A DNA stretch of 50,615 bases, taken from IMG/VR virus record IMGVR_UViG_3300035670_000307, positions 1 to 50,615 of that record; one strand, written 5' to 3'. The position numbers and the translations under genes are program-made. Positions 2,316-45,143 of the stretch are shown in pieces. The DNA comes from a virus (taxonomy: Duplodnaviria; Caudoviricetes). The notes under the pieces are model-generated. The model saw nothing but the letters and a program-made list of their open reading frames with translations. It searched no databases and was not told where the DNA came from. Position 1 is the first letter of the stretch, and every line of letters starts with the position of its first letter.

Positions 2316-2735
2316 ATGATTTTCAAGATCGTTTCAGATGATCAGATCGCCATATCGTTCGACAGCCGGGATATCGCCAAGCTGCGCACGATTGAGCGCA
2401 ATGGGGCAGAGGCCGACTGGCTGCCCGAATGCACCTACAGGCGTTCAACGGGCACTTGGAGCATCACGCAGAACGCCCCCGGGGGCAACAAGACGCCGGC
2501 CTTTGAGCTGATGCGCCGCTTTTGCCGGGAATTTATAGACCGGGGCGTCTATGACGATACGGCACGAGGCCTCTCGACGATGGTTCTCTCGCTTGATCGA
2601 TTGATCGATTTGATGGTCATATCGCGCCGGATGACTGAAACGGAGACAGAAGCGGTATTTGGCGGGCAGGACTTGATCGAGAAGGCTCCGGTCAAGTCGC
2701 ACCCGGTCAATCCCTACAGCAAGCGGCCGGACTAA
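2316..2735 (+). CDS. hypothetical protein
   Basis: GAAGGA RBS plus the shared leader hairpin. Confidence 0.75.
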   Translation: MIFKIVSDDQIAISFDSRDIAKLRTIERNGAEADWLPECTYRRSTGTWSITQNAPGGNKTPAFELMRRFCREFIDRGVYDDTARGLSTMVLSLDRLIDLMVISRRMTETETEAVFGGQDLIEKAPVKSHPVNPYSKRPD

Positions 2736-2736
2736 T

Positions 2737-2765
2737 TTGCAAGCCCATTTGGGCGGCCGTATACT
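2737..2765 (+). promoter_or_regulatory. sigma70-type promoter
   Basis: TTGCAA-N17-TATACT upstream of the ORF at 2806. Confidence 0.6.
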
Positions 2766-2805
2766 TCCAAAACGACGCCCAAGGGCAAAGCGAAGGATTA
2801 ACCCT

Positions 2806-3048
2806 ATGAAACACTCGAAGCTCTATCTCGCAGGCGCTGCCGTCCTGATGGCCATTGCCGTGATGGCATTTCTCCCGGACTTTATAGCCGTCGCCTCCCT
2901 GCTGATCACCAGTTCAATCGCTTTTGGCTGGTCGCTCTACTCGAGGATGCTGGATCGCCGTTCGGTCGAAGTCGACGCTATCCTCTCCCAGTATGACCAA
3001 TACGAGCTGCGCAAGGCTACCCGCTGGGTTGGCCGCAGCTCACTCTAG
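2806..3048 (+). CDS. small membrane protein (2 TM)
   Basis: ATG 2806 after GAAGGA; two hydrophobic segments. Confidence 0.7.
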   Translation: MKHSKLYLAGAAVLMAIAVMAFLPDFIAVASLLITSSIAFGWSLYSRMLDRRSVEVDAILSQYDQYELRKATRWVGRSSL

Positions 3049-3102
3049 CCGGACCTCGCTCAAACGCAGCTGACCCTAGCCGGACCTTTTCGGGAATTTA
3101 TC

Positions 3103-3936
3103 ATGATTGAATTCGACAACACATTCGACACTTTCGAGCAGCTGCCGGAGAAGCTTCACGTCACCCCCGGCCGTTCGTTTCATGCTTCCCTGATGCGTTC
3201 GATGGGCGCGAAGTTTTCGGACGTGGCCACGTTCTTTGGTGTGCCGTTCCTCAATCCGGAGCACCCTCTGGTCAAGGCGCGATACCCGTTCTTTGCCCCC
3301 ATGCTTGCCCCGCTGCAGCGTGCCGTCAACGTGATGGCGTTCGATGCCGGGGTGATACTGACCGACGATCTCGAGGACGTGATTGCTACGCAGGCGACCA
3401 ACCTCACGATTGCCCGGGCGGCGTTCATGAAGGCAGTCTATGCCGACCCTCTCGAGCTGCAGGACGAGGATCTGGTCGAGAATATCGACTACCTCTGCGA
3501 AGCCTTGCTGCCGACCGACTATGCCGACAGCGAAGATATGCGCCGGGAGCGTGCCAAGCGCTACGAGGACTGCTTGCCCGATGATCGCCGCGTGCCTCTA
3601 GTCGACCATGCTTCCCCTTGGTCTGTGCTGATGGGCATGTGTGGCATTGGCGCCCAGAAGATGATGCAGTTTGGCTATTCGAAGGCGCAGTCAGGTCTTA
3701 TCGGACAGGGCAGGCTGGCTATCGACGATGAAGATGCGATCTTCTGGATTGCTGATCAGGCCGTCCAAGTTGCCGAGAAGCTGCGCATTATCCACGCCAT
3801 TGGAATTGATGATCCTGACAGCTTCATGATCGACAAGATCGAGCAGCTGACCCCCTCGCAACTGGCAACGGCTTGGCAGCTATTCCCGACCAGCCGGACC
3901 CAGATCGAGACTTACACACCCTACCTGTCAATCTGA
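3103..3936 (+). CDS. hypothetical protein
   Basis: 277-aa ORF with phage-typical codon usage; no recognisable motif. Confidence 0.8.
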   Translation: MIEFDNTFDTFEQLPEKLHVTPGRSFHASLMRSMGAKFSDVATFFGVPFLNPEHPLVKARYPFFAPMLAPLQRAVNVMAFDAGVILTDDLEDVIATQATNLTIARAAFMKAVYADPLELQDEDLVENIDYLCEALLPTDYADSEDMRRERAKRYEDCLPDDRRVPLVDHASPWSVLMGMCGIGAQKMMQFGYSKAQSGLIGQGRLAIDDEDAIFWIADQAVQVAEKLRIIHAIGIDDPDSFMIDKIEQLTPSQLATAWQLFPTSRTQIETYTPYLSI

Positions 3937-16034: not shown

Positions 16035-17513
16035 ATGATGACTCTCAAAGAAGCACCGGGCTTAACGTTGGCGTCCGAACGGGCGGATCACATGAGGCTC
16101 GTTATATCGCCCGGTCTGGACACAGAGCGCAGGAGCAAGCTGGGTCAATTTATGACGCCGGCACCTGTTGCAAGCCGTATGGCTGACATGTTTTCAGAGA
16201 TGCCTGATCATGTGCGCCTGCTTGATGCAGGGGCTGGGATTGGAGCTCTGACAGCTGCTTTCGTTTCCAAAGCGATCTCGTCGGATCAAAAACCGAAGTC
16301 TATTAGCGCGACCTGCTTTGAGGTGGATCCGCAGATGGCCAAGCATCTAGCCGAGACGCTCGAGCATTGTGCCGACGCGTGCGCAGAGGCTGGGATCGAA
16401 TTCACCTCGGAGATCGTGCCAGACGATTACATCCTAGTATCGGCCGAACCGCTGATCAGTAAAGCCCGCACGTTCAACCGCGCCATTCTCAACCCGCCAT
16501 ACGCCAAGATTGCCACCACCTCGAAATGGAGGCTCGCTCTCCGAAAGGTGGGGATTGAGACGGTGAACCTGTATTCCGCCTTCATTGCTCTGGCGATAAA
16601 CCAGATGGAGCAAGGTGGGGAGATCGTGGCGATTACACCCCGGTCGTTCTGCAATGGACCCTACTATCAGCCGTTCCGCAGGCACATGCTGGATAACACC
16701 TCACTCCTAAGGCTGATGGTGTTTGAATCCCGAAAAAAGGCTTTCGCGGATGATGACGTCTTGCAGGAGAACGTGATCTTCCAGCTTCGGAAGGATCATG
16801 ACCAGCCGGAGACAGTGAGGCTCGAGACTGACACCGGAGACGCCCGGCTCGTGCCATTCGTCGACGTGGTGCACCCGCGTGACAAGAACGCATTTATCCG
16901 GCTGACTATCTCCGACGATGATGCAGAGCTTGCCAAACGTGTGCAGTCTCTCCCGTGCTCTCTGGAAGACTTGGGCATCAAGGTATCGACAGGTCGTGTT
17001 GTCGACTTCCGTGCCAAGCAGCAACTTCGCAAAGATGCCGGAGCTGACACCGCTCCCTTGATCTATGCCAGTCACATGAAAGCCAGCCGTATCGTTTGGC
17101 CGATCCCTGACTTCAAAAAGTTCAACGCTCTGGCAATCGACGATCACACCAGACCGCAGCTTGTGCCAGCTGGTCGCTACGTCCTGACCAAGCGGTTTTC
17201 ATCGAAAGAAGAGAAGCGCAGGATCGTTGCTGCGATCTATGATGCTCCGGAACCCGCTGGCATCGATAACAAGATGAACTACTTCCACAGCGGCGGCACC
17301 GGCTTGCCAGAATATCTCGCTGTGGGCTTGTGCGCGTTCCTGAATTCAACAGCGGTGGATGACTACTTCCGTCTGTTTTCCGGGCATACACAGGTCAATG
17401 CCACTGACCTTCGAACGCTTCACTACCCGACCAGGCCGCAACTCGAGAAGCTCGGGAAGCTGGCACCGGAAGGGCAGGAAGCAATCGACGCAGCTGTTTC
17501 AGCCTTGATTTAA
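16035..17513 (+). CDS. type II N6-adenine methyltransferase (BsuBI/PstI family)
   Basis: GQFMTP, LLDAGAGIG, NPPY motifs; C-terminal FSGHTQVNATDL typical of the M.BsuBI/M.PstI group. Confidence 0.9.
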   Translation: MMTLKEAPGLTLASERADHMRLVISPGLDTERRSKLGQFMTPAPVASRMADMFSEMPDHVRLLDAGAGIGALTAAFVSKAISSDQKPKSISATCFEVDPQMAKHLAETLEHCADACAEAGIEFTSEIVPDDYILVSAEPLISKARTFNRAILNPPYAKIATTSKWRLALRKVGIETVNLYSAFIALAINQMEQGGEIVAITPRSFCNGPYYQPFRRHMLDNTSLLRLMVFESRKKAFADDDVLQENVIFQLRKDHDQPETVRLETDTGDARLVPFVDVVHPRDKNAFIRLTISDDDAELAKRVQSLPCSLEDLGIKVSTGRVVDFRAKQQLRKDAGADTAPLIYASHMKASRIVWPIPDFKKFNALAIDDHTRPQLVPAGRYVLTKRFSSKEEKRRIVAAIYDAPEPAGIDNKMNYFHSGGTGLPEYLAVGLCAFLNSTAVDDYFRLFSGHTQVNATDLRTLHYPTRPQLEKLGKLAPEGQEAIDAAVSALI

Positions 17514-18520
17514 TCGAAGGACGAAACGAGCAGCTGCTTGGCCGGATCTGCCTGAATCCAGATGTAGCTTCCGACAGCGATGTTGCGGTGTGCGGCCTGA
17601 CGAGCAGCGGCGTCCTTCCAAGTCAGATACGTTGTGGTGAAGCCAATGTCGGCCTTGCCATAACGCTCGGCAAACTTGGTCATGTTTGTGACCTTGGTCA
17701 GATCCACCTCGCCATCGCTGGTGACGGCTTCAATAACCCAAAGCTTGTCGGTCTCTGGATTCCAGAGCAGCACGTCAGGCATGGCATCGCCAAGCTCGAG
17801 CTTAACGCCTGCCTTCTCCATAGCAGCGGCTTCGTCAGGGCTGATGCGGTCGCCGTCGCTGTCGTCAACGTAGAGCACCTTGTAGCCAGGCAGAAACTTG
17901 GCCGCGTAGTGGTCGACCGATGCCTTGATCAATTCGCCGTGATTGTTGTCGACAAGTCCCTTAGCTGCCTCTGCGATCTGTGCCTGGAATTCGAGACGCT
18001 TGCGGGAGACGTCCTTATTGGCCCACTCGGAGAGCATTGCGCTCCACTCGCTATCGTCTGCCATCAGAACAGCCTTGAAGCCGTCTTCCAGCTTGTAGGC
18101 TGACGAGGGTGACTTCGGCTTGGGATGACCGGCGATGAAGTTGCCTTCGTGCAGATACACTGCCTCAAATCCGCCAAGATCGCGAAGGGGCTTGATCCAG
18201 TAGTCCCGGCCTTCACGATCCAGCTTGGTCTTGCCACGCTGAAGAATGCCGATGTGGCAAGCGATCTGTGCAGTGGTGGCCCCATCACCAAACTTTGCAC
18301 CAGCTGGAGGGTTCGACATCCAGCTGTCGGTTTCATCGTCTAGGAGCGCATATACGGCGTCGATCAGATCCACGTTCGAAAGTGCGATCTTCTCGAGAAC
18401 GGCCTTCACCTTGGCCTTTGAGACGCCTTGGAATTCTTCGGGAACAGGCTTCCCCGTAGCTTTGATACGCTCTTTCCGGAGCGCCGCTGCTACGTCGTCT
18501 ACTTTAGCCACTAGAATCAC
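17510..18520 (-). CDS. BsuBI/PstI-family restriction endonuclease
   Basis: MPDVLLW...WVIEAVTSDGEV catalytic motif; convergent with the MTase. Confidence 0.85.
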   Translation of the reverse strand: MILVAKVDDVAAALRKERIKATGKPVPEEFQGVSKAKVKAVLEKIALSNVDLIDAVYALLDDETDSWMSNPPAGAKFGDGATTAQIACHIGILQRGKTKLDREGRDYWIKPLRDLGGFEAVYLHEGNFIAGHPKPKSPSSAYKLEDGFKAVLMADDSEWSAMLSEWANKDVSRKRLEFQAQIAEAAKGLVDNNHGELIKASVDHYAAKFLPGYKVLYVDDSDGDRISPDEAAAMEKAGVKLELGDAMPDVLLWNPETDKLWVIEAVTSDGEVDLTKVTNMTKFAERYGKADIGFTTTYLTWKDAAARQAAHRNIAVGSYIWIQADPAKQLLVSSFD

Positions 18521-18602: not shown

Positions 18603-19889
18603 CTATCTGGCGAGCAACATCTTCTCCATGTCTGATGCGACCGTGTTACCTTCACCACGCCGGTGCTTGAACAGGTGCACGTAGATCTTGAGCGTTACGT
18701 TGGTATTCGCATGGCCAAGTGTATCAGCGACCAGCTGTGCTTCCTTGCCAGCATTGATCAGGAGAGACGCGTGGTAGTGTCGGCAATCGTGCGGCGTCCA
18801 CACGTTCTTGCCGTCTGATTTGAAGCCAGCTGCTGTCATCAGATCCGACCATTGGCGTCTGGTGAAATTGTTGGTGTTGAGCGGCTTCTTCCGATCCGTG
18901 CCGAAAATGAACTCGCCTGGTTCGCGGTCGTTCGACCGGACATAGAGCGTGCGCAAAATCTGCATGAAGTCCTTGCCCATCAGGATCGTGCGGATCGAGT
19001 GCTTGTTTTTGGGAGCGCCTATCTTGCCAGAACGCTTGCGAGCGCGACGTATCGAGATTGTCCGCTTATCCCAGTCAACATCACCCCACTGGAGCGCAGA
19101 TGCCTCTCCTATGCGGGCGCCACTGGCAATCAGGAAGTAGATCAGCGGGCGTGCCCACTCCCACGATTTCATCCGCTGCTGTTCCTGCACCTCTCCCATG
19201 CCGCGTCCAGACTGCCCGGGGATCTTGCCGGTTGCTGCCAGAGCATCGGCCGCGTCGAGAATGCGCTTTACCTCGTCAGGCGACAGGAAAGATTCCACCG
19301 GCACGAGATCGCCATCTTCGTTAAGCTCGAGCTCGTCCTTGATCTGGAGGTTCTTGATTGCTGCGGCCGGATCCACAGGCATCGAGCCGATCTGCACCTG
19401 GTAGCCAAGCGCCTGCTTGACCACGCCCAAAGCCCGGTTGGCAGCGTCTCGCGTGTGATCAGTAGCTACACGGTCACGCCACTTCCGTAGCATCGGAGTG
19501 TTAAGCTCTGAAATCTTCAGGAGGCCGATTGTCGGATTGATGATCGTCCTGATGGAGCTGCGGTATCTGTCAGCTGTTGCCTGCTCGATAGGCATGCGCC
19601 CATCAATGCCGACCTTCTCTGCCATAGACAGCCACTCGCTGCAGGCGTCGGATATCGTCGACTTGGTATCCTTGGCCAGCCTTCCGACCGTGCGCAGGCG
19701 TGTTTTCTGCTCTTCCTGCCATTCTCGAGCTTCCTGAAGGGTATCGAACCACTTGGAAGTAACGCGCCGGAACGATCCAGATTCCGTCTTGTCAGATTTG
19801 TCGGTCACATAGGCCCGATATTGCCTACGTGCTTTTCCACGAGAATCATTGACTCTCGATGATATTCCGAGTGGTAATTTGCTAGCCAT
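18603..19889 (-). CDS. int: tyrosine integrase
   Basis: GARIGE, PK, HDCRH, LGHAN and TLKIYVH catalytic residues; N-terminal arm-binding region. Confidence 0.95.
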   Translation of the reverse strand: MASKLPLGISSRVNDSRGKARRQYRAYVTDKSDKTESGSFRRVTSKWFDTLQEAREWQEEQKTRLRTVGRLAKDTKSTISDACSEWLSMAEKVGIDGRMPIEQATADRYRSSIRTIINPTIGLLKISELNTPMLRKWRDRVATDHTRDAANRALGVVKQALGYQVQIGSMPVDPAAAIKNLQIKDELELNEDGDLVPVESFLSPDEVKRILDAADALAATGKIPGQSGRGMGEVQEQQRMKSWEWARPLIYFLIASGARIGEASALQWGDVDWDKRTISIRRARKRSGKIGAPKNKHSIRTILMGKDFMQILRTLYVRSNDREPGEFIFGTDRKKPLNTNNFTRRQWSDLMTAAGFKSDGKNVWTPHDCRHYHASLLINAGKEAQLVADTLGHANTNVTLKIYVHLFKHRRGEGNTVASDMEKMLLAR

Positions 19890-21973: not shown

Positions 21974-22041
21974 TCACTTCACTCCCGTTGAAGTTGTAGG
22001 AAACATGCTAGAACTGCTAGCGTCAGGACGCAAATAAGGCG

Positions 22042-22440
22042 TCACAGTTGATAAATAAAATAAAAGATGACTATAGCTATGATTGTCCAAATAACCAGTT
22101 TTGAGAGTTTTGAGCTTTCGAAACTCTCAACATCAAATGGAACGCCCATTTCATCATTATAGAAATCTTTCGAAAATTCGAATCCTGGAATAAACTGTCT
22201 TGGTTCAAAATTCTTGCCTTCCACACCACAATCACCAGAATCCTTGCGTTCTTGCAAAGATTCCTTGGGATTTTCTGTTTTAAAATGACCTCTTACTAAA
22301 TTGAAATTTTCATTCTTGTTAAACAAACATAGATCCATACCTAAAGCGCGATTTGGCTCTAAATATCTAAGAAAATGCTCGCAGTTCTTGCAGAGCGGCA
22401 CGTCAGGTTTTTCAGTTTCAGCTGCTTCACTCACGTTCAT
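22042..22440 (-). CDS. AT-rich hypothetical protein (CxxC, C-terminal TM)
   Basis: LCKNCEHF; hydrophobic C-terminus; GGGAG RBS. Confidence 0.75.
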   Translation of the reverse strand: MNVSEAAETEKPDVPLCKNCEHFLRYLEPNRALGMDLCLFNKNENFNLVRGHFKTENPKESLQERKDSGDCGVEGKNFEPRQFIPGFEFSKDFYNDEMGVPFDVESFESSKLSKLVIWTIIAIVIFYFIYQL

Positions 22441-22478
22441 TCTCCCGATGGAACGTTAAAACACTCAAGGATAGACTG

Positions 22479-22760
22479 TCACTTCTCGTGGATTATAAGC
22501 TGCACAATGTCGTCGTTTGCCAAGATCTCTTTGAAAGCATCTACAAGATTTTGCAGAAGCAAAGATGATGTGTCCGAATAACCTATCATCTCTGGATTCT
22601 CATTGGTTGACATAAAAAGCACAAACTTTCTTTCACCAACTCCAATGGTAACTCCATAAACCTTCACATTACGAAGGTTATCAATATCTGACGCCTTCAG
22701 ATATATCGGGGTGATGGGTTTTGTTTTGATATGACTTAACAGCTCGTCCATCATGTTCAT
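22479..22760 (-). CDS. AT-rich hypothetical protein
   Basis: same 24-bp start region as the previous gene. Confidence 0.7.
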   Translation of the reverse strand: MNMMDELLSHIKTKPITPIYLKASDIDNLRNVKVYGVTIGVGERKFVLFMSTNENPEMIGYSDTSSLLLQNLVDAFKEILANDDIVQLIIHEK

Positions 22761-22775
22761 TCTCCCAATGGAACG

Positions 22776-23099
22776 TTACTCGACAGGCGGTATTGCCTTC
22801 GAGAATTCTTGCTGACGCTTTTCGGTTGCCCGCCACGTCCTACGCGTCACCTCGAGCTTGTCCCGGCAATCACGACCGGCCGCTCTAAGATCTGCGATGT
22901 AAGTCTTCTGCGCGCTCTCACGGATGCGCAGGTCACCAGCCTTTGCAGTCGGAACAGCAGGCTCATCTGCACATGTCATCTCTGCATCAGAGACAACTGG
23001 CAGGGCCACACCAGCCACGACCACAGGCGGAGTTGGGATTGTCTTGCAAGCAGCACACAGCAGGCTTGCACCAGCGATCAGGACAAGACGAAGGCTCAC
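22776..23099 (-). CDS. o-spanin (Rz1-like lipoprotein)
   Basis: lipobox LCAAC followed by a Pro-rich segment; follows the i-spanin. Confidence 0.75.
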   Translation of the reverse strand: MSLRLVLIAGASLLCAACKTIPTPPVVVAGVALPVVSDAEMTCADEPAVPTAKAGDLRIRESAQKTYIADLRAAGRDCRDKLEVTRRTWRATEKRQQEFSKAIPPVE

Positions 23100-23473
23100 T
23101 GCTCGTCTCCCTTGCGCAATTCGTCGTAAAACTCCTGCATGCCTTCCGACACGAGAGGATCGCCATCCACGACAGCGCGTTCCACGATTTTCTGGCGAAT
23201 TATTCTGTCATGTCTGACAGCAGGGGCGCTCTTGGCAGCAACATCATCGACGATGGCTGCGTGCTCGGCCTGAACATCGGCCGCGGCCTGGTTTATGATG
23301 GCTTGCGCTTGAGACGCGACGGCCTGTCGCTTGGCCGTCGTCTGCGCCTTCTCTTCCCGCTCCCTGGATAGCTCGATCCTTGGAGCAGCGACAAGGAAGT
23401 ATAGAGCGATCGCTATGGCGAGGCCGGCAACCCCGATGACGAGCGCTTTGTAATTGAGGCTTGTTGGTAGCAT
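23096..23473 (-). CDS. i-spanin (Rz-like)
   Basis: N-terminal TM plus Ala/Gln-rich coiled coil. Confidence 0.7.
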   Translation of the reverse strand: MLPTSLNYKALVIGVAGLAIAIALYFLVAAPRIELSREREEKAQTTAKRQAVASQAQAIINQAAADVQAEHAAIVDDVAAKSAPAVRHDRIIRQKIVERAVVDGDPLVSEGMQEFYDELRKGDEQ

Positions 23474-23527
23474 GTCCGCGAGTATAGCCGCGAACTGCTA
23501 TTCCTGCAAGTAAAATATTAATCAGTG

Positions 23528-23950
23528 TCAGTCATGCATCATTCGTCTACTGCGCTGCAGCTCGTGTGCCTCTGACATTTCATCGCCCATGACCTGCCTC
23601 TGGACATACCAGTATCCCGGTTCGACGATCTGCGCCTCATGCTGATGCTCTTCACGATGATGGGTCAGCTCTGTCGGCTCTTCCAGTGCCATCCAGAAGT
23701 GATCCCTGCGGACAGGAACGAACTTTTCCTCGTCCCTGTCATCTTCCATGTAGAGGGTCACGCCAGTCGACGGTATCACGTGGTTATGACCTGTCTCACT
23801 ATGAGCTAGGACAAGTTCGGTCATGCTTCTTTCGAAGTTATGCGCGACTGCATACTTGGGTATGGTCTTCACCGGAACCAAGGTAACATCCCCTTGCAGA
23901 ATGGTTTTGCGATCACGGTCGAAATCAGGTCTATAGTCTTTCATCTTCAC
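23528..23950 (-). CDS. conserved His-rich protein (QGDV...HSETGHNH), partner of DUF6745
   Basis: motifs QGDV, ETGHNH, H..EH, PGYWYVQRQ. Confidence 0.75.
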   Translation of the reverse strand: MKMKDYRPDFDRDRKTILQGDVTLVPVKTIPKYAVAHNFERSMTELVLAHSETGHNHVIPSTGVTLYMEDDRDEEKFVPVRRDHFWMALEEPTELTHHREEHQHEAQIVEPGYWYVQRQVMGDEMSEAHELQRSRRMMHD

Positions 23951-24999
23951 GTCCTCCTTTTTGACGCTCTCAACATCCAGAATGGTATGTTGTTATTGAT
24001 AAGCTCTTGAGCATCTTCCACTGTCATCACGTCTGAAGGAACTGGGAGACAGAACCACCTACCGGTTCCGCACAGCACCTTCAGGAATCGCTTGGGCTCG
24101 GATTTGGGCAGATGCATCTCGATAAGGCTGCCCCATTCTGGATCTGCTCTGCGGTGTATGAGATCGGCGCCGATATGCTCGAAGATCCGATACCAGCCGT
24201 ATTCAGCGCAGATATCATCCCGTAGCTTTTGGTCGTCCATGTGGAGGAAGTCCCGGGGATGCAGCATTCGAACATCAGCAAACTGGTCAGGGATATGCAT
24301 ACCCCTGCGGATCCATAGCTTCTTGCCGCTCTTGAGTGTGACTGCAGGCCTGTCAGACGTGCATGTCAGGTGATAAATCTCGTCGTGAAATACGTCGGCA
24401 GGCCAGTCGATAACCTCGAACCTGTCGTGCAGAGCTCGAGCTGCCCACACGTTGGTCAGGATCGTCAGCCAAGCGTGATCATACTCGAGAACGTCATAGC
24501 CGTAGAATGAGCGGCGCTTGGTGTTGCCGACGAAACGCGGGATAGCGTGGGTCTTGAACTTGTGTTGCGCCGGATCTGTGTATGGCTGGGCGATAGACAT
24601 CTGGAACGACTTCGTTCCTTCCATCACCAGCATGATCTCTTCGCACCAGTTTCTGGGGAAGCACATCGGCCCGATGTAGTGCTGGAAGCTTGGGAAGGCG
24701 TTCACCTCGAGAAGTTCTGCCAGCACGTAAGCGCCGCTGTCTTCAATGAACTGCTTGTCTTCGCCATATGCACGGAAGCGGTTGTGAACGCCGATAGCGT
24801 GGCGAAAGGTATATGATGAGCTGAACTCGCTCCAGTTGGTTTTCTGCCCCCTGGCATAGACCATCTCCGGCATAGGAAGCTGGAAAGCCTTGTAGACGGT
24901 TTCGACGGCTTCCTCGAGACGCCCGCGATGGCACGAACCAATTCCTATGGATCGCCGGAAGGCTTCCATTCGCAGATTATCGAAATCGATCTTCGTCAT
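23947..24999 (-). CDS. DUF6745-like protein
   Basis: C-terminal RFLKVLCGTGRWFCLPVP...TVEDA and DRPAV motifs. Confidence 0.7.
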   Translation of the reverse strand: MTKIDFDNLRMEAFRRSIGIGSCHRGRLEEAVETVYKAFQLPMPEMVYARGQKTNWSEFSSSYTFRHAIGVHNRFRAYGEDKQFIEDSGAYVLAELLEVNAFPSFQHYIGPMCFPRNWCEEIMLVMEGTKSFQMSIAQPYTDPAQHKFKTHAIPRFVGNTKRRSFYGYDVLEYDHAWLTILTNVWAARALHDRFEVIDWPADVFHDEIYHLTCTSDRPAVTLKSGKKLWIRRGMHIPDQFADVRMLHPRDFLHMDDQKLRDDICAEYGWYRIFEHIGADLIHRRADPEWGSLIEMHLPKSEPKRFLKVLCGTGRWFCLPVPSDVMTVEDAQELINNNIPFWMLRASKRRT

Positions 25000-25078
25000 G
25001 CCCTTAGCATCACACCGGTTTCATCCCAGTGCAATACCATTTTGCATCACTCAAAAACCCAGCAAATGCTAGATATTG

Positions 25079-25441
25079 CTATGCTAATGTTTCATTTTGG
25101 GATTTAAATTGCGGCGAATCATCATCGTCGCCACCGCCCGACGCTTCGAGCTCGAACGCCAAGGCCTTGCCTTTGAACGAGCGCCGATTGATCGCCATTC
25201 CCAGAGCAGAAATCGCCATCAGCATGCCGCCAAGCAGGACGATCATGCCAATGCCAAGCCACTTGATACGCTCGTCTTCTGTGCCTTTGCCCCAGCCGCC
25301 AAGCCACAGGATATAAACCAGCCATACAGAAAACAGTGTCATGACGCCGGAGCCTACTATCGAGGCCACCAGCGCCACCATCGCCCGGATATCCCGGGGC
25401 TGCCAAGGGAGCTGCGCCCAATAGCGCTTGCCTTCGGTCAC
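25079..25441 (-). CDS. putative holin (2 TM)
   Basis: two TM segments with a charged C-terminal tail; coupled to the endolysin. Confidence 0.6.
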   Translation of the reverse strand: MTEGKRYWAQLPWQPRDIRAMVALVASIVGSGVMTLFSVWLVYILWLGGWGKGTEDERIKWLGIGMIVLLGGMLMAISALGMAINRRSFKGKALAFELEASGGGDDDDSPQFKSQNETLA

Positions 25442-25887
25442 AGCGGATCGATCCCCACGCTACGGCACCAAGACTTCACATCGAAGCTAGGGCAGGCCTT
25501 GGTAACGCCCGGCCAATCCCGGTGTCCCTTGATCTCCGCCTTGGGATAGGTTGCACGCAGCTTGAGCAGGAGAGCCTTCATGGCTGCCTTCTGGGAATCC
25601 GTCCTGGTATCGGCAGGCGTCATCGCCTTGTTATTTTCCACGCCACCGATGTAGCAGATCCCGATGTTGCCAGTGTTGTTCTTGGCAACATGGGCGCCCC
25701 TCTGGTCATAGCGAAGGGTCTGGACGTTCTTGCCGTCAAGCTCGATCACATGGTGATAGGAGATCTGTCCGAACTTGTCGGTATCCCACTGGGAGATAGT
25801 AGCAGCCTTTACATCGCGCCCTCTGGGAGTGGCAGCGCAATGAATGGTAATTGCACGGATAGCTTTGGGGTCCATTGGAGCAGGCAT
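25438..25887 (-). CDS. endolysin, T7-lysozyme-like N-acetylmuramoyl-L-alanine amidase
   Basis: IHCAAT, YHHVI, GAHV, IGICYIGG, GHRD...KACPSFDV motifs. Confidence 0.92.
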   Translation of the reverse strand: MPAPMDPKAIRAITIHCAATPRGRDVKAATISQWDTDKFGQISYHHVIELDGKNVQTLRYDQRGAHVAKNNTGNIGICYIGGVENNKAMTPADTRTDSQKAAMKALLLKLRATYPKAEIKGHRDWPGVTKACPSFDVKSWCRSVGIDPL

Positions 25888-25894
25888 GACAACC

Positions 25895-26461
25895 TCACAC
25901 GATTGCGCTGGTCGGCACATCGATTGCGTAGATCGTGAAGCCAACGAGGGTTGAACGGGAATAATCGGGGATCTTGAGCAGGGTGATCGACGCGCTCGAG
26001 CCGTCCTGCATGTCGACGTTATCGTATCGCGCCTTGTGATCAGGCGACCGCATGGCCTGGTTAGTCAGCGACCTGATGTGAGACGCGACAGCAGCCGGCC
26101 ATATATCTTCATGCCGCTTTCCGAGAACGTCTGAAGGCGTCTTGCCATTCGGCGTGAGAAATCGATCAATGAAGTGGCGGTTGACGTGGATGCACTCGCC
26201 GTTTCGATCCACCTGCCATGTCGGAAAGGGGAAATCGTCACGAGCGGCTTCCAGGCCGTCTATGCGCAACTCCATTTTCTGGACCAGATTTCTAAGGCGT
26301 TCGATCTCGTCTTTTTGCTCGAGGAACTGACGACTGCGTTCTTCGAGAATGGTGCGGAAGTCATCGCGGCGATGTTGCCGGACAGCACCGATCCATCCCG
26401 ACAGAACGCCAAGGATTAGGAGGATTGCCTGTTTGCCAAGATCCCAGAATAGATCGCTCAT
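25895..26461 (-). CDS. membrane-anchored PAS-domain protein
   Basis: N-terminal TM, coiled coil, then PFPTWQVDRNGECIHVNRHF...DVLGKRHEDIWP PAS signature. Confidence 0.8.
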   Translation of the reverse strand: MSDLFWDLGKQAILLILGVLSGWIGAVRQHRRDDFRTILEERSRQFLEQKDEIERLRNLVQKMELRIDGLEAARDDFPFPTWQVDRNGECIHVNRHFIDRFLTPNGKTPSDVLGKRHEDIWPAAVASHIRSLTNQAMRSPDHKARYDNVDMQDGSSASITLLKIPDYSRSTLVGFTIYAIDVPTSAIV

Positions 26462-26463
26462 GG

Positions 26464-27000
26464 TTAGCCACGCCCGAAGGCAGCCTCCCACACAGCAAGC
26501 GACACCACAGGGGGAATGTCTTCATTCGGAACGATGACCCGGGGGGTTACCGAATTAATATCATCAGGATTTGGCTTGGCTGCCTTGCGTGTAAGCGTGA
26601 CTATCTTGCCGCCAGCGGCTTCGATCAGAACTGCTTCACACTCGAGGCGGACGTCATCGATAGCAACGATGGCATCAGAAGGAATCTTCTCGGCAATCCA
26701 GTCGAGCAGACGGATGCACCAGATATCCTCGCCATAAAGATCACGGTCGCGCTTGCCGATCTCAATCAGCTTCTGACGCGGTGTAAGTCCACCCAAGAGA
26801 GGGTGCGGCTTGTCCTTATCTTCGCCTTGGGCAAACGCAGCAACCGCGAACCCCTCACGGATAGCCATATCGCGGACACGACCTGCAATCGAGTGAACTC
26901 GCACCTGTCTGTCCGCGATCATTTGAGTTGCGATTGTTGTCTTCCCAGATCCGGGGTTGGGAGAGTGAAGACCGATGATCGTTGGATACTGTTTCTGCAT
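26464..27000 (-). CDS. deoxynucleoside monophosphate kinase
   Basis: P-loop GSGKTT, TPRQKLIEIG, DIW and DDVR..E motifs of the T4 gp1/T5 dNMP kinase family. Confidence 0.85.
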   Translation of the reverse strand: MQKQYPTIIGLHSPNPGSGKTTIATQMIADRQVRVHSIAGRVRDMAIREGFAVAAFAQGEDKDKPHPLLGGLTPRQKLIEIGKRDRDLYGEDIWCIRLLDWIAEKIPSDAIVAIDDVRLECEAVLIEAAGGKIVTLTRKAAKPNPDDINSVTPRVIVPNEDIPPVVSLAVWEAAFGRG

Positions 27001-27061
27001 ATCGCAATACTAGCTTTTCAAGTGCTATATCTGCAACTAAGCAGACACAAAAACGGCTCAA

Positions 27062-27394
27062 TTAGTTGGTTTCTTCAGTTTCCGGAAACATGGCGTCCAG
27101 GTTTCCGACAAACTTCTGTGCCAAAGCACGACCAAGCACTATGCTTTCCTCGGGATCTGGATCTTCAGGCGTCCTTGTGAAAGGGACCTTGATCTCGCCA
27201 ATTGCCGCCGCAAGTTCTGTGTTAGTAAAGTTACCAACTTCAGCGCGAATTGAATATCCAAGCGAGAACATCAGCGTCTTGACGTTCTTCGCCTTGCAAT
27301 CACGCTCTCCTTCGGCAATGCGACGGATACCAATGAATGCTGGGTTCTTCAGTCCCTTGTGCAAAGCCGCAGCGATTTCTTGCTGTGTAGGCAT
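27062..27394 (-). CDS. hypothetical protein
   Basis: TGATG coupling to the upstream gene. Confidence 0.7.
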   Translation of the reverse strand: MPTQQEIAAALHKGLKNPAFIGIRRIAEGERDCKAKNVKTLMFSLGYSIRAEVGNFTNTELAAAIGEIKVPFTRTPEDPDPEESIVLGRALAQKFVGNLDAMFPETEETN

Positions 27395-28200
27395 CAGTCA
27401 ATCCTTCTTATGTTCAAGCTCATCATGTCGAGAGAGACGGCATTTTGAGATTCAGAGGCCAGCACGAATCTGAAGCGCTTGCTTCCACCAGTTCCGTTAC
27501 CTGCAAGCGTCCCTGACATACTGATGAGCTGACGCGCAGATCTTGCCGAGAAGTCCAGGCCATTAAGGACGTTGTCCTGCCAAACTCCATTTATAAGAGT
27601 TTGAGACTGCAGGTAGATATAGTCCTGATATCCGTTGTTTGCCAAAAGGCGGGCTGTCAGAGAGAAGTCGAAGCCACGTCCCCATCCAGTAAGATAAATC
27701 CAGTCGTTATCGGAGAGATTGAACATCAATTCCCCGCCGTCATTAGAAACGAGAAAACTATTAGAGAAGCTACGAAGGTTCATCTGAATTGGAAGAATGT
27801 TAGCAGATCCCGCTGGCTTCTGGATAGGGTTAGCATTCAGGCAAGTTATCCCCATATGCTGAATCGTTGCCAATGAAGCACTCTGCTTAAAGCCTTGAAC
27901 ACCATTACCCATGATGGAGATAAGCTCCATAGACACAGGCGATAAAATGGTATCTATCTTTTCGACCAGATTACCAAAATCATCATAAGTGTAGTCATAG
28001 TAAGATCCCATTTCAGGATCTTCTATAAGCTGCATAACTGGAACCCGCTGCACAGCGATCAGCGCTGTGATCGGGTATTGCTCTGTCCAGTAGTAGCTCT
28101 CGATTTCAAGGAACTTTTCGTCTGTCAGACCCTTGATCTGCGTAAGACGGTCACCCAAAGGTGCGCCAGTTCCGCTCATCTTCGGACCCATGATCAGCAC
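27394..28200 (-). CDS. hypothetical protein (possibly virion-associated)
   Basis: 268 aa with a beta-rich C-terminal half. Confidence 0.7.
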   Translation of the reverse strand: MLIMGPKMSGTGAPLGDRLTQIKGLTDEKFLEIESYYWTEQYPITALIAVQRVPVMQLIEDPEMGSYYDYTYDDFGNLVEKIDTILSPVSMELISIMGNGVQGFKQSASLATIQHMGITCLNANPIQKPAGSANILPIQMNLRSFSNSFLVSNDGGELMFNLSDNDWIYLTGWGRGFDFSLTARLLANNGYQDYIYLQSQTLINGVWQDNVLNGLDFSARSARQLISMSGTLAGNGTGGSKRFRFVLASESQNAVSLDMMSLNIRRID

Positions 28201-42950: not shown

Positions 42951-45038
42951 TCAGGCAGGGAAGACAGCCTTCACGGCGCCAAGGTGGCTTGCGCCGACGA
43001 AGTTCGAGTGCTGGTAGGATTCCCAGTCGACACGAAGTGCCGAAGTCATCGCCAGACGCTCGATGCGAGGATCGCCATTGCCCTGCAGGAAGGCGCGCTT
43101 GATCATGCCCTTGATGCCATTGGCACCAGCAAGATAGCAGGTCTTTTCCTTGAATGAGTCGACAACCACAACTTCGATGCCGGTGTAAGCCTGCACGTCA
43201 GAAGCCTTCGTCGCATTGATCTGGGCAGTCAGCTTGCGAGCCTTACGCTCCAGATCATACGAGACGATCAGGTAACGGGGAGCAGTGCGGACAGCGATCC
43301 CACCAAGCTTGGGCGACTGCGACTGTGTGCGCAGAGCGATAACCATCTTTTCGAGGTTATCTTCGTCAAGATCAGTGATGTTGACGAGGTTGCCAGCGGC
43401 CTGCGAGAAGATCTTGCGCTTACCATCCGAGCTGTTGACATAACCGTTCTCGAGAACGTTCATGAACAGAGCTTCGTTGTAGAAGTTCCAGGTGATGCCC
43501 AGATCGCGCATGCCTTCCATGAACATGCCAATGTTGTCGCGGATCAGAGCCTGAACAGTCAGGGCGATCTTGATACCATGGGTATCAGTCTTCGCCGTGT
43601 AGCTGTTGCCGCTCATTGAGGCGAGGGGCAGTTCGCCGTCTTCCGAAACCTTCGCGATTCCGTTGAACAGCGACATTGAGAAGACCTGACGGCCATCAAA
43701 GTCGGTCATCGGCATCTGGCCGGCAAGGCGCTGCCAGTTGGTTTCAGGGATGGTTTCCTTCCAGCTCTGATCAATCACAGCCTGTGCCGGCTTGGCATAG
43801 ATTGCGAGGAAGTCGGAGCTGGTGATACCACCGCCAACCGAACGCTTCAGAGCCTGTTCGACAAGCGAAGCGTCAGAAGCGCGCTCGTCAACGAATTCAC
43901 CCATCGAGCGAAGGTAGGCAATAGCCGCACCACGCTGGCCATGACCGGCATACTGGCGAGCCTGATCAGAGGGAGTGAACGAACCTGTTGCAGTGCGGTC
44001 AAGCAGTTCCGCAGTGAACATTTCACCGCGAAGCTCCATTTCCGTGCGGAAAGAGCGCTGATTGTTAGCGCCCGAGCCATCAGCGTTAATGCTCACTTCG
44101 GTCTTCCTTTCGTTTGAAACTTCGTTCTTGAGGTTGGCGCGGACGAAATCAGCGAACGAGACGCCTTCTTCGATGGCACGCGATGCAACAGAAACATCGA
44201 GACTGTTTGCAGCGGCATAACGGGTGATATCAGCAGCATCCGGGCTGACAGTGCGCTCGCCAGAAGCTTCGGGAGCAGCAGTGGTTGTTTCAGTCGCAGC
44301 AGCGGCCGGAGCAGCAGGAGCCTGGTCGTTACGCTGCTCGTTGCTTACAGAAGCAGGAGCTTCACTACCTTCAGTCTTAACAGTCACATCTACCTCCGAT
44401 GTATTTGCAGGTGCAGTGCGAGATTGATCTTCCCGGACACTGCACCCGCTGTCCGCCGGAATAGCCACAAGGCTAATTTCGTAAGGCTCCCAATCGACAG
44501 CCCGCTTTTCTGTGATCTTTCCTTCGGCTTTCGTGATTTCCCACTTACGAACACGATAACCGACAGAAATCTTTCCGATGATGCCGTCACGAACATCCAT
44601 CCAGATATCGTCAACATCAGAACGGTTGGAAAAACGGACAGTAGCGTAACCAACGCCGTCTTCAATCCAGACCTTTTCGACACGGCCAAGAACATCTTCA
44701 AGACTATATGACCAGTGCGAATTCAGGAGCGGTGCCCCATCGTTCATGCGACCAAGGTCAATAGAATCTTCGTCAACTTGAAGGGATTCGTTATAAAATT
44801 CGTCGCGATACCAGTCATAACGAAGGACAGTCGCACCAGTCGTCCAGATTACATCTACTGTTCTGGACTTGCTGCCAGTTGTCTCGTCGACAATCTCACG
44901 AGCAGTGTTTGAGCGAACTGTGACTTCGCGAAGCGAGAGCTCATCACCGCTTTCGAAACGAGCAATACCGTTACGGATCTCGACAGGCGCATGGCCAGCG
45001 AACCTTCCGATATCGTTATTTCGAGCTGCCTGTGGCAC
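42951..45038 (-). CDS. prohead protease-major capsid fusion protein
   Basis: HK97-type protease motifs PLLNSH, ISVGY, WEPYEISLVAIPAD, then a linker and capsid domain (TSSDF, PRYLIV); start moved to GTG 45038 after the GAAGGAAG RBS. Confidence 0.88.
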   Translation of the reverse strand: MPQAARNNDIGRFAGHAPVEIRNGIARFESGDELSLREVTVRSNTAREIVDETTGSKSRTVDVIWTTGATVLRYDWYRDEFYNESLQVDEDSIDLGRMNDGAPLLNSHWSYSLEDVLGRVEKVWIEDGVGYATVRFSNRSDVDDIWMDVRDGIIGKISVGYRVRKWEITKAEGKITEKRAVDWEPYEISLVAIPADSGCSVREDQSRTAPANTSEVDVTVKTEGSEAPASVSNEQRNDQAPAAPAAAATETTTAAPEASGERTVSPDAADITRYAAANSLDVSVASRAIEEGVSFADFVRANLKNEVSNERKTEVSINADGSGANNQRSFRTEMELRGEMFTAELLDRTATGSFTPSDQARQYAGHGQRGAAIAYLRSMGEFVDERASDASLVEQALKRSVGGGITSSDFLAIYAKPAQAVIDQSWKETIPETNWQRLAGQMPMTDFDGRQVFSMSLFNGIAKVSEDGELPLASMSGNSYTAKTDTHGIKIALTVQALIRDNIGMFMEGMRDLGITWNFYNEALFMNVLENGYVNSSDGKRKIFSQAAGNLVNITDLDEDNLEKMVIALRTQSQSPKLGGIAVRTAPRYLIVSYDLERKARKLTAQINATKASDVQAYTGIEVVVVDSFKEKTCYLAGANGIKGMIKRAFLQGNGDPRIERLAMTSALRVDWESYQHSNFVGASHLGAVKAVFPA

Positions 45039-45143
45039 TAACTCACTTCCTTCTTTCAACGTCGATAGCGATAATAGCAGAGTTGGCACGAAAATTGCAA
45101 GTGTCAGCCCGCAAGCTCTCGGAAGAGCCTGCGGGCATCAGGT

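Follow-up and report, generated by a model that had tools for sequence, protein, structure and literature searches.

The moment at which a phage lyses its host is a main fitness trait, and, apart from the lysis inhibition of T-even phages, we know of few ways in which a phage can adjust that moment in mid-infection. In phage T4, accessory proteins with a sensing domain adjust the lysis clock, formed by holin T and the antiholins RI and RIII, at the post-translational level. Holin T, a protein of about 200 amino acids (aa), itself combines a single membrane helix with a large globular domain, and both this domain and RI act in the periplasm. Coupling of a PAS sensor to lysis is known as well, from phage VP882. 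Herein, we describe a 188-aa phage protein, P0001, which combines an anchor-like N-terminal helix, a charged helical stalk and a PAS domain, and whose gene stands immediately before an amidase endolysin gene in a complete IMG/VR virus record of 50,615 bases (IMGVR_UViG_3300035670_000307; CheckV 100%; the whole record is called the window below). P0001 was found to belong to a large, almost purely viral family whose genes recurrently adjoin unrelated endolysin genes. Tentatively, and with somewhat less than even confidence, we read it as an accessory, sensor-coupled lysis-timing regulator of holin triggering, and not as the essential holin. A full-text literature search, with supplementary files outside its range, found no paper describing a PAS-domain lysis protein.

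At the end of the tail module, on the minus strand, four tightly packed genes encode a kinase-like protein, P0001, an Amidase_2 endolysin and a protein of 120 aa that has two transmembrane (TM) segments, hereafter the 2-TM protein (Table 1). The PAS gene begins 2 nucleotides (nt) after the stop of the kinase-like gene and ends 8 nt before the amidase start, and the amidase stop overlaps the start of the 2-TM gene in the sequence GTGA; the PAS, amidase and 2-TM genes are translationally coupled. The start assigned to the PAS gene (ATG at 26461, with the stop at 25897-25895) agrees with those of its homologues P0002-P0005. The amidase has a hydrophilic N-terminus, with no signal or signal-anchor-release (SAR) segment. 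The 2-TM protein has three relatives, with a W-L-G-G-W turn common to them, and no family match to it was found in Pfam or PHROG. An earlier, sequence-only reading of this DNA had placed a PAS protein directly upstream of an amidase endolysin and a separate 2-TM holin candidate after it, and both placements were confirmed.

The assignment of the C-terminal part of P0001 to the PAS class is based on family, model and structural comparison. Pfam PAS_4 (PF08448) matches residues 76-181 with an E-value of 1.6e-5, at 25.5 bits against a gathering cut-off of 23.1. In an AlphaFold2 (AF2) model built with seven homologues (mean predicted local distance difference test score, pLDDT, of 80), one continuous helix spans residues 2-72 and is followed by a PAS domain at residues 80-180, with a pLDDT of about 90 and the beta2-helices-beta3 order. 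Its strands (residues 81-85, 89-93, 144-149, 159-168 and 171-180), with helices in between, form a five-stranded PAS-type sheet, so that the protein qualifies as a PAS protein both by the Pfam gathering score and by its fold. Furthermore, Foldseek returned 49 PDB matches at E<=1e-3, and those listed (about 30) are all PAS domains or PAS-containing proteins; VIA structure alignment gave Z scores of 12.6-10.9 for the 50 chains listed, with 94-113 residues aligned. In the stalk, half of the residues between positions 28 and 75 (50%) are charged, and the best heptad register places hydrophobic residues at 9 of 14 a/d positions. Only 7 residues follow the PAS domain, and there is no kinase or other output domain. 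The layout proposed from the letters alone, namely an N-terminal helix, a coiled coil and a C-terminal PAS domain with no output module, is therefore present, and its PAS fold withstood the structural check; the helix itself is of borderline hydropathy. We read P0001 as a kinase-less, probably dimeric module of membrane helix, signalling helix and PAS domain.

Modules of this kind are familiar from bacterial sensors. The sensor kinases ArcB and BvgS carry a membrane helix, a coiled-coil or signalling helix and a cytoplasmic PAS domain in the same order; unlike these kinases, the phage protein has no HisKA, HATPase or other output domain, and its family is viral. The nearest single match is DvhD, a protein of LapD type, whose PAS domain ranked top both by sequence (9rc0) and by structure (Z 12.6, root-mean-square deviation 3.0, 101 residues). 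The authors of the DvhD study propose that a cytoplasmic event travels through the PAS dimer and the juxtamembrane helices to the membrane and beyond (PMC13090378). DvhD is thus a precedent for inside-out signalling, which supports the direction proposed here for the phage protein. The two proteins differ in that DvhD possesses a periplasmic dCache domain and a cyclic di-GMP-binding HD-GYP domain, and the phage protein has neither. With respect to T4, the role proposed for P0001 would make it a lysis-timing accessory of the RI/RIII kind. It differs from holin T in both placement and fold, since the globular domain of T is periplasmic, whereas the domain of P0001 is predicted to be cytoplasmic and has the PAS fold. 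The sequence-only reading had ascribed a GAF-like domain to holin T; one paper on the T4 holin, checked on this point, makes no mention of GAF or PAS.

The family of P0001 is considerably larger than a simple search reveals. A word-indexed search with P0001 returned only six relatives, at 40-67% identity, whereas a profile search of 1.84 billion cluster representatives produced 1729 matches at E<=1e-3, 340 of them at E<=1e-10. Among 156 retrieved proteins, 142 are 160-260 aa long, and the long matches outside this range are multi-PAS kinases. A P-x-P-x-W motif marks the start of the PAS domain in 132 of these 142 members (in one case at an implausible place), and 126 members have an N-terminal hydrophobic 17-mer with a value of at least 1.4, starting at a median residue of 7.5. 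The stalk, taken from the end of the TM helix to the motif, has a median length of 66 residues across the family, and a GG pair occurs within the first 45 residues of 93 of the 142 members. The near-invariant residues are, in P0001 numbering, P78, P80, W82, N94, L102, P104, G114, W121, K163, G174 and G177. Because length, motif, hydrophobic 17-mer and the spacing between helix and motif are all kept, it is the whole layout, beyond the PAS domain alone, that is conserved. The nearest ESM Atlas clusters contain proteins of 183-233 aa and are 99-100% viral, and one of them has 1142 members. A large, almost purely viral family of proteins of about 190-240 aa with a shared layout is the main new result of this analysis, and it is a result of association.

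In cultured phages the family is sparsely represented. A tblastn search with P0001, phi14:2 g078, P0034 and P0014 against 50,697 phage records found only Cellulophaga phage phi14:2 and the Chryseobacterium phages MA9V-1 and MA9V-2, whose proteins are annotated as 'PAS fold protein', 'regulatory protein' or 'hypothetical'. Pattern scans were made with sub-alignments A3-A6 and A10, alignments A2 and A9 being too diverse. One sub-family motif, scanned over 185,579 species genomes, was found in only three contigs of metagenome-assembled genomes (MAGs), two of them from Bacteroidota, and the alignment of the close clade (A1) gave no match over viral and genome contigs. In the window, the relatives of the capsid protein belong to phages of Rhodobacter, Ralstonia, Xanthomonas, Pseudomonas and similar hosts, which suggests that the window phage probably infects a proteobacterium. 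The family thus occurs in phages of Bacteroidota and, probably, of Pseudomonadota.

The orientation of the protein in the membrane can be predicted from the charges around the hydrophobic helix. When Lys and Arg were counted in the 15 residues on each side, the C-terminal side was richer in 116 of the 126 members (mean 3.3 against 0.4), with five members opposite and five equal. From this bias, the positive-inside rule predicts a short N-terminus outside and a cytoplasmic stalk and PAS domain. An identification of P0001 as the inner-membrane spanin (i-spanin) was rejected, as its C-terminus is predicted to be cytoplasmic and as a separate pair, made up of a TM/coiled-coil protein and an Rz-like lipoprotein, lies at 23473-22776.

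The association with lysis was examined in the gene neighbourhoods of relatives. Loci were taken from IMG/VR, one metagenome scan, MAGs and three isolates, and near-identical copies were merged, leaving 31 non-redundant loci; the window's nearest relatives, P0002-P0007, are outside this set. The family gene was located by a local hidden Markov model (HMM), and L018 and L033, which lacked a match at the level of open reading frames (ORFs), were dropped. Genes were called crudely, as the longest ORFs with limited overlap, and two miscalls were put right manually. Within two positions of the family gene lie 111 genes, among which the commonest Pfam domains were Peptidase_M15_3 (four times) and GH108, Amidase_2 and GH19 (twice each), together with peptidoglycan-binding domains, and the PHROG endolysin families were likewise the commonest. 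Ten of the 31 loci are lysin-linked in this sense. The hydrolase directly follows the PAS gene in L001 (phi14:2; GH19), L034 (GH19 with PG_binding_1), L017 (Amidase_2, Pfam-confirmed), L019 (Amidase_2), L031, L037 and L038 (all M15_3) and L053 (GH108); it directly precedes the PAS gene in L020 (M15_3) and lies two genes before it in L003 (MA9V-1; GH108). Among the 28 loci with a gene downstream, the hydrolase therefore follows immediately in 8, or in 9 of 29 once the window is included, and in phi14:2 the PAS gene overlaps the endolysin gene. With L061 and the window added, 12 of 33 loci have a peptidoglycan hydrolase within three genes, from five unrelated catalytic families. That homologues should be linked to lysis genes had been set beforehand as the test on which a lysis role could fail, and the linkage was found. 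If at most 10% of random phage genes lay that close to a lysin, the chance of 10 in 31 would be about 6e-4 or less, and the five different enzyme families give independence to the linkage. The data thus support the conclusion that relatives of P0001 adjoin non-homologous endolysins far more often than chance.

Several features of these neighbourhoods deserve separate mention. In many loci, the PAS gene is flanked by small TM proteins or lipoproteins, and none of the small TM neighbours matches a named holin family in PHROGs. DUF5675 proteins (PF18925, phrog_1501) occur near the PAS gene in L046 (4072-4485, next gene downstream) and L025 (226-663, three genes upstream), where other loci have an endolysin; they have no PHROG function and were not counted as lysins, and they are candidates for an unrecognised cell-wall enzyme. 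In three Bacteroidota-phage loci (L037 4539-4994, L026 4951-5454 and L003 4499-5128), the first or second gene behind the PAS gene encodes a lipoprotein with a C-terminal hydrophobic segment, a layout that we take to resemble that of unimolecular spanins. In addition, the 298-aa Amidase_2 endolysin directly after the PAS gene in L019 (1460-2353) has two hydrophobic segments in its C-terminal half and could be either an endolysin bound to the membrane or a fusion of endolysin and holin. A virion-protein reading of the family was also considered and set aside: in phi14:2, neighbouring proteins are marked as detected by tandem mass spectrometry and g078 is not, which is weak evidence.

Whether P0001 is itself the holin or an accessory to it can be judged from related cassettes. 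Seven loci carrying relatives of the window amidase were compared, and the family HMM found no match among all their ORFs. One of them, L054, is syntenic with the window: its amidase is 71% identical, and it keeps the kinase-like protein (38%), the 2-TM protein in the same position (30%, E 1e-7), the i-spanin (39%) and the outer-membrane spanin (o-spanin; 53%). Between its kinase-like and amidase genes, in the slot that the PAS gene occupies in the window, lie two genes, whose products have 88 aa with one TM segment and 167 aa with four. In L055 and L057 the amidase gene is preceded by genes for five-TM, one-TM and two-TM proteins and followed by a nested spanin pair. These gene orders suggest that the conserved membrane partner of the window-type amidase is encoded by the 2-TM gene and that the upstream slot is variable. 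In L061, which does carry a family gene, the order is CHAP, an 88-aa TM protein (DUF7940), Phage_lysozyme, a TM/coiled-coil protein with an embedded lipoprotein ORF, PAS and portal. There, a lipoprotein ORF with an L-A-G-C lipobox (3194-3418) lies out of frame within the TM/coiled-coil ORF (2575-3465), directly before the PAS gene, and to judge from the sequence this is a classic nested Rz/Rz1 arrangement; the CHAP protein of L061 has an N-terminal hydrophobic segment. Furthermore, another small TM protein lies within three genes in 7 of the 10 lysin-linked loci. Because L054 keeps the cassette without the PAS gene and L061 adds a PAS gene to a complete cassette, a role as accessory regulator appears favoured over that of essential holin. 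A dispensable member alongside a separate holin candidate, as expected of an antiholin or lysis-timing protein, is thus seen in L054, L061 and those seven loci. Of the earlier proposal of a holin or antiholin, the link to lysis has stood, and the choice within it leans to an accessory regulator over an essential holin.

The alternative, that P0001 is a single-TM holin of about 200 aa gated by its cytoplasmic PAS domain, with the 2-TM protein as antiholin or second holin, is in our judgement unlikely. Its best argument is position: the gene adjoins the endolysin gene, with a gap of only 8 nt to the amidase start, and in the nine loci counted above, the window among them, the family gene occupies the classic holin slot immediately upstream of the endolysin, a slot filled in L054, L055 and L057 by multi-TM holin-like proteins. 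The endolysins of L017 and L053 have no further small TM protein in their vicinity (a lipoprotein is all there is in L053), and in L019 the only other TM segments are within the amidase itself, on a contig that ends soon after; these three loci fit a holin role better. The membrane helix is rich in Gly and other small residues, with the frequent GG pair noted above, and the size and layout recall those of T4 holin T. These points are set against the cassettes of L054, where amidase, 2-TM protein and spanins persist without the PAS gene, and of L061, where a small TM protein precedes the lysozyme and the PAS gene comes after the spanins. Furthermore, a weakly hydrophobic single helix joined to a folded cytoplasmic domain of 100 residues is unlike the holins familiar to us, and a structural match to a T4-type holin in BFVD was insignificant (E 0.36, probability 0.25), with no sequence similarity.

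A third possibility is that the cytoplasmic PAS domain serves as a tether or chaperone, so that before the holin fires the soluble endolysin stays at the membrane or is kept inactive. The endolysin does lie immediately downstream in the nine loci, and the window amidase has no export signal. On the other hand, the enzymes concerned have five unrelated folds, and a single conserved PAS surface that binds all of them is improbable; one of the L061 enzymes appears to have an N-terminal hydrophobic segment of its own, and some PAS genes are separated from the lysin gene or far from any. We regard this explanation as highly improbable.

If P0001 is a sensor, the pocket of its PAS domain should hold clues to the signal. 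The best PDB sequence matches to the family profile are DvhD's PAS/HD-GYP fragment (9rc0, E 3.1e-7) and VqmA (6ugl, 6kju and 6ide, E about 4e-5), and a K-x-P motif on a late strand is common to the family, DvhD and VqmA. VqmA and its phage VP882 counterpart VqmA_Phage resemble the family in being PAS receptors, of 3,5-dimethylpyrazin-2-ol (DPO), with VIA Z scores of 11.1-11.2 and with pocket residues that are kept in the family. In a VqmA study, DPO is described as held mainly by F67, F99 and K101, and the substitutions F67A and K101R as abolishing DPO binding (10.1101/2019.12.19.881847). Across the 142 family members, the position of VqmA K23 is Lys in 109 (V84 in the window protein), that of Y36 is Tyr in 100 and Phe in 38 (F97), that of F67 is Phe or Tyr in 98 (I129), that of D71 is Asp in 121 (T133), that of F99 is Val or Ile in 115 (L161) and that of K101 is Lys in 129 (K163). 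The VqmA-like residues are those of the main, Bacteroidota-phage branch (alignment A2; for example phi14:2 g078, L001 4983-5609). This conserved set of polar and aromatic residues suggests that the main branch has a genuine ligand site akin to that of VqmA. The systems differ in output, since the signal of the phage PAS protein would pass to a membrane helix and not to transcription, and ligand binding by the family is a prediction from its residues. For P0001, an identity as a VqmA-type autoinducer receptor was rejected: of the three residues that hold DPO it keeps only the Lys (K163, with I129 and L161 at the other two), and it has no DNA-binding domain. The window protein may therefore not bind the ligand of the family, and its clade has an invariant A-R-x-D motif of its own.

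A number of observations weigh against a lysis-timing role. The helix at residues 10-27 of P0001 has a 19-residue Kyte-Doolittle maximum of only 1.58, at the borderline for spanning a membrane, and the window protein departs from the family at four of five pocket positions, with V84, F97, I129 and T133 in place of K, Y, F and D. The probability calculated for the lysin linkage is weakened by related loci, such as L037 and L038, as the loci are not all independent, and L017, L053 and L019 look more like loci in which the PAS protein is the holin. Moreover, 21 of the 33 loci have no recognised lysin within three genes; seven loci are interrupted by a contig end. In L042 and L047, the PAS gene lies between an upstream gene not scanned for families and protease/crAss capsid genes; in L012 it stands beside capsid-like genes, in L024 beside Dam and in L036 beside an RNaseH-like gene.

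Another reading is a function unrelated to lysis timing. The protein would then be a copy, expressed late and lacking a kinase, of the sensor module found in bacterial membrane kinases; it would act on host signalling, for example through mixed dimers with host sensors, or would have another membrane function, and would tend to sit at module boundaries where lysis genes are also located. We consider this fairly unlikely. Its support comes from the two thirds of loci without a recognised lysin nearby, several of them in head or DNA-metabolism modules, and from the whole-length model, which resembles the TM-helix-PAS modules of ArcB-, BvgS- and RpfC-type kinases and of GGDEF proteins (TM-score by query 0.70-0.83). 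However, module boundaries by themselves hardly explain adjacency to five unrelated hydrolase families, and the PAS gene is translationally coupled to the endolysin gene in the window and overlaps it in phi14:2. The family also spans phages of Bacteroidota and, probably, Pseudomonadota, and no close similarity to a host kinase was seen, the best PDB sequence match having an E-value of 3e-7.

Under the preferred reading of P0001 as an accessory timing regulator, the state of the cytoplasmic PAS domain would be determined by a redox cue or by binding of a small ligand or partner protein. This state would be relayed along the continuous helix to the membrane helix, in an inside-out mode of signalling, and would alter the pairing of the membrane helix with itself or with a holin. 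Altered pairing would in turn delay or advance holin triggering, and hence the release of the cytoplasmic Amidase_2 endolysin. The 2-TM protein encoded after the amidase would be the likelier hole-former, and the spanin pair 2 kb downstream would complete the lysis system. A predicted complex of P0001 with the 2-TM protein obtained a score of 0.01 and a mark of 0.32; made without controls, it counts neither for nor against binding.

A bolder generalisation, which we consider doubtful, is that the family constitutes a widespread class of phage-specific lysis-clock sensors, membrane-tethered PAS receptors that would sense a small molecule of the cytoplasm and directly target the holin within the membrane. 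If so, lysis timing would be set after translation by the state of the host or its community, without a transcription factor. Because the main-branch pocket resembles that of VqmA, the signal there could be of pyrazinone type or another diffusible metabolite, and the window branch could have been retuned to another signal. Were the regulatory role correct, it would define a new class of lysis regulator and provide a handle on how phages read host metabolic or community signals at lysis. The cultured members of the family, in Cellulophaga phage phi14:2 and Chryseobacterium phages MA9V-1 and MA9V-2, make the idea testable. To our knowledge, the holins and spanins of marine Bacteroidota phages are mostly unrecognised, and the PAS gene would give annotators a marker of the lysis cassette in these phages. 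The protein could also serve as a ligand-controlled lysis part in engineering.

Table 1. Features of the P0001 operon and of the downstream spanin pair, in window coordinates
Feature	Position	Strand	Basis
P-loop deoxynucleoside monophosphate (dNMP)-kinase-like gene, directly upstream of the PAS gene, same operon	26464..27000	minus	phrog_139 3.8e-21
Gene of the 188-aa TM/coiled-coil/PAS protein (P0001), stop included	25895..26461	minus	ORF, homologue starts, Pfam PAS_4, AF2
Hydrophobic, Gly/Ser-containing N-terminal helix, residues ~10-27; probable membrane anchor, predicted N-out/C-in	26381..26434	minus	hydropathy 1.58
Helical stalk, charged and heptad-patterned, residues ~28-72, running on from the membrane helix	26246..26380	minus	AF2, heptad count
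PAS domain, residues 76-181, with motif D-x-P-x-P-x-W in front	25919..26236	minus	Pfam, Foldseek, VIA
Amidase_2 endolysin, ATG 25887, stop 25440-25438	25438..25887	minus	PF01510 1.9e-15, phrog_822 1.5e-50
120-aa 2-TM protein with charged C-terminal tail, holin candidate	25079..25441	minus	GTG 25441 overlaps amidase stop
Hairpin and T-run, terminator-like, just 3' of the 2-TM gene	25057..25074	minus	position suggestive only
i-spanin candidate, N-terminal TM and coiled coil, distinct from the PAS gene	23096..23473	minus	39% identity to L054 protein after 2-TM gene
o-spanin candidate, Rz-like	22776..23099	minus	phrog_12081 7.5e-11; 53% identity to L054 protein with L-A-G-C lipobox

The window genome is that of a temperate phage of siphovirus type, with an integrase, small and large terminase subunits, a portal, a capsid-protease fusion, a major tail protein and a tape-measure protein. 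Comparison of window DNA 22000-28000 with the 50,697 phage records gave no DNA-level match. Terminator-like sites in the region numbered 6 against a shuffle mean of 4.8 and are not enriched, and promoter counts were likewise not above the shuffle means. Between the 2-TM gene and the spanin pair, a DUF6745 gene (350 aa, PF20530 1.4e-6) and a 140-aa ORF occupy 23528-24999 on the minus strand; since the spanin genes of L054 directly follow its 2-TM gene, these two genes appear to have been inserted into the lysis cassette. The gene just downstream of the spanin pair (22042-22440, minus strand) encodes a Cys-rich protein of 132 aa whose C-terminal tail is hydrophobic. Elsewhere in the genome, a DNA methyltransferase gene (phrog_1600 1e-128) is convergent with a restriction-endonuclease-like gene (phrog_1639) at 16035-18520, next to the integrase gene (18603-19889), and the pair is likely a phage-borne restriction-modification or methylation module. 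The capsid-protease fusion, a 712-aa protein encoded at 42951-45089 on the minus strand, joins a head-maturation protease to the major capsid protein (phrog_4523 1.4e-109).

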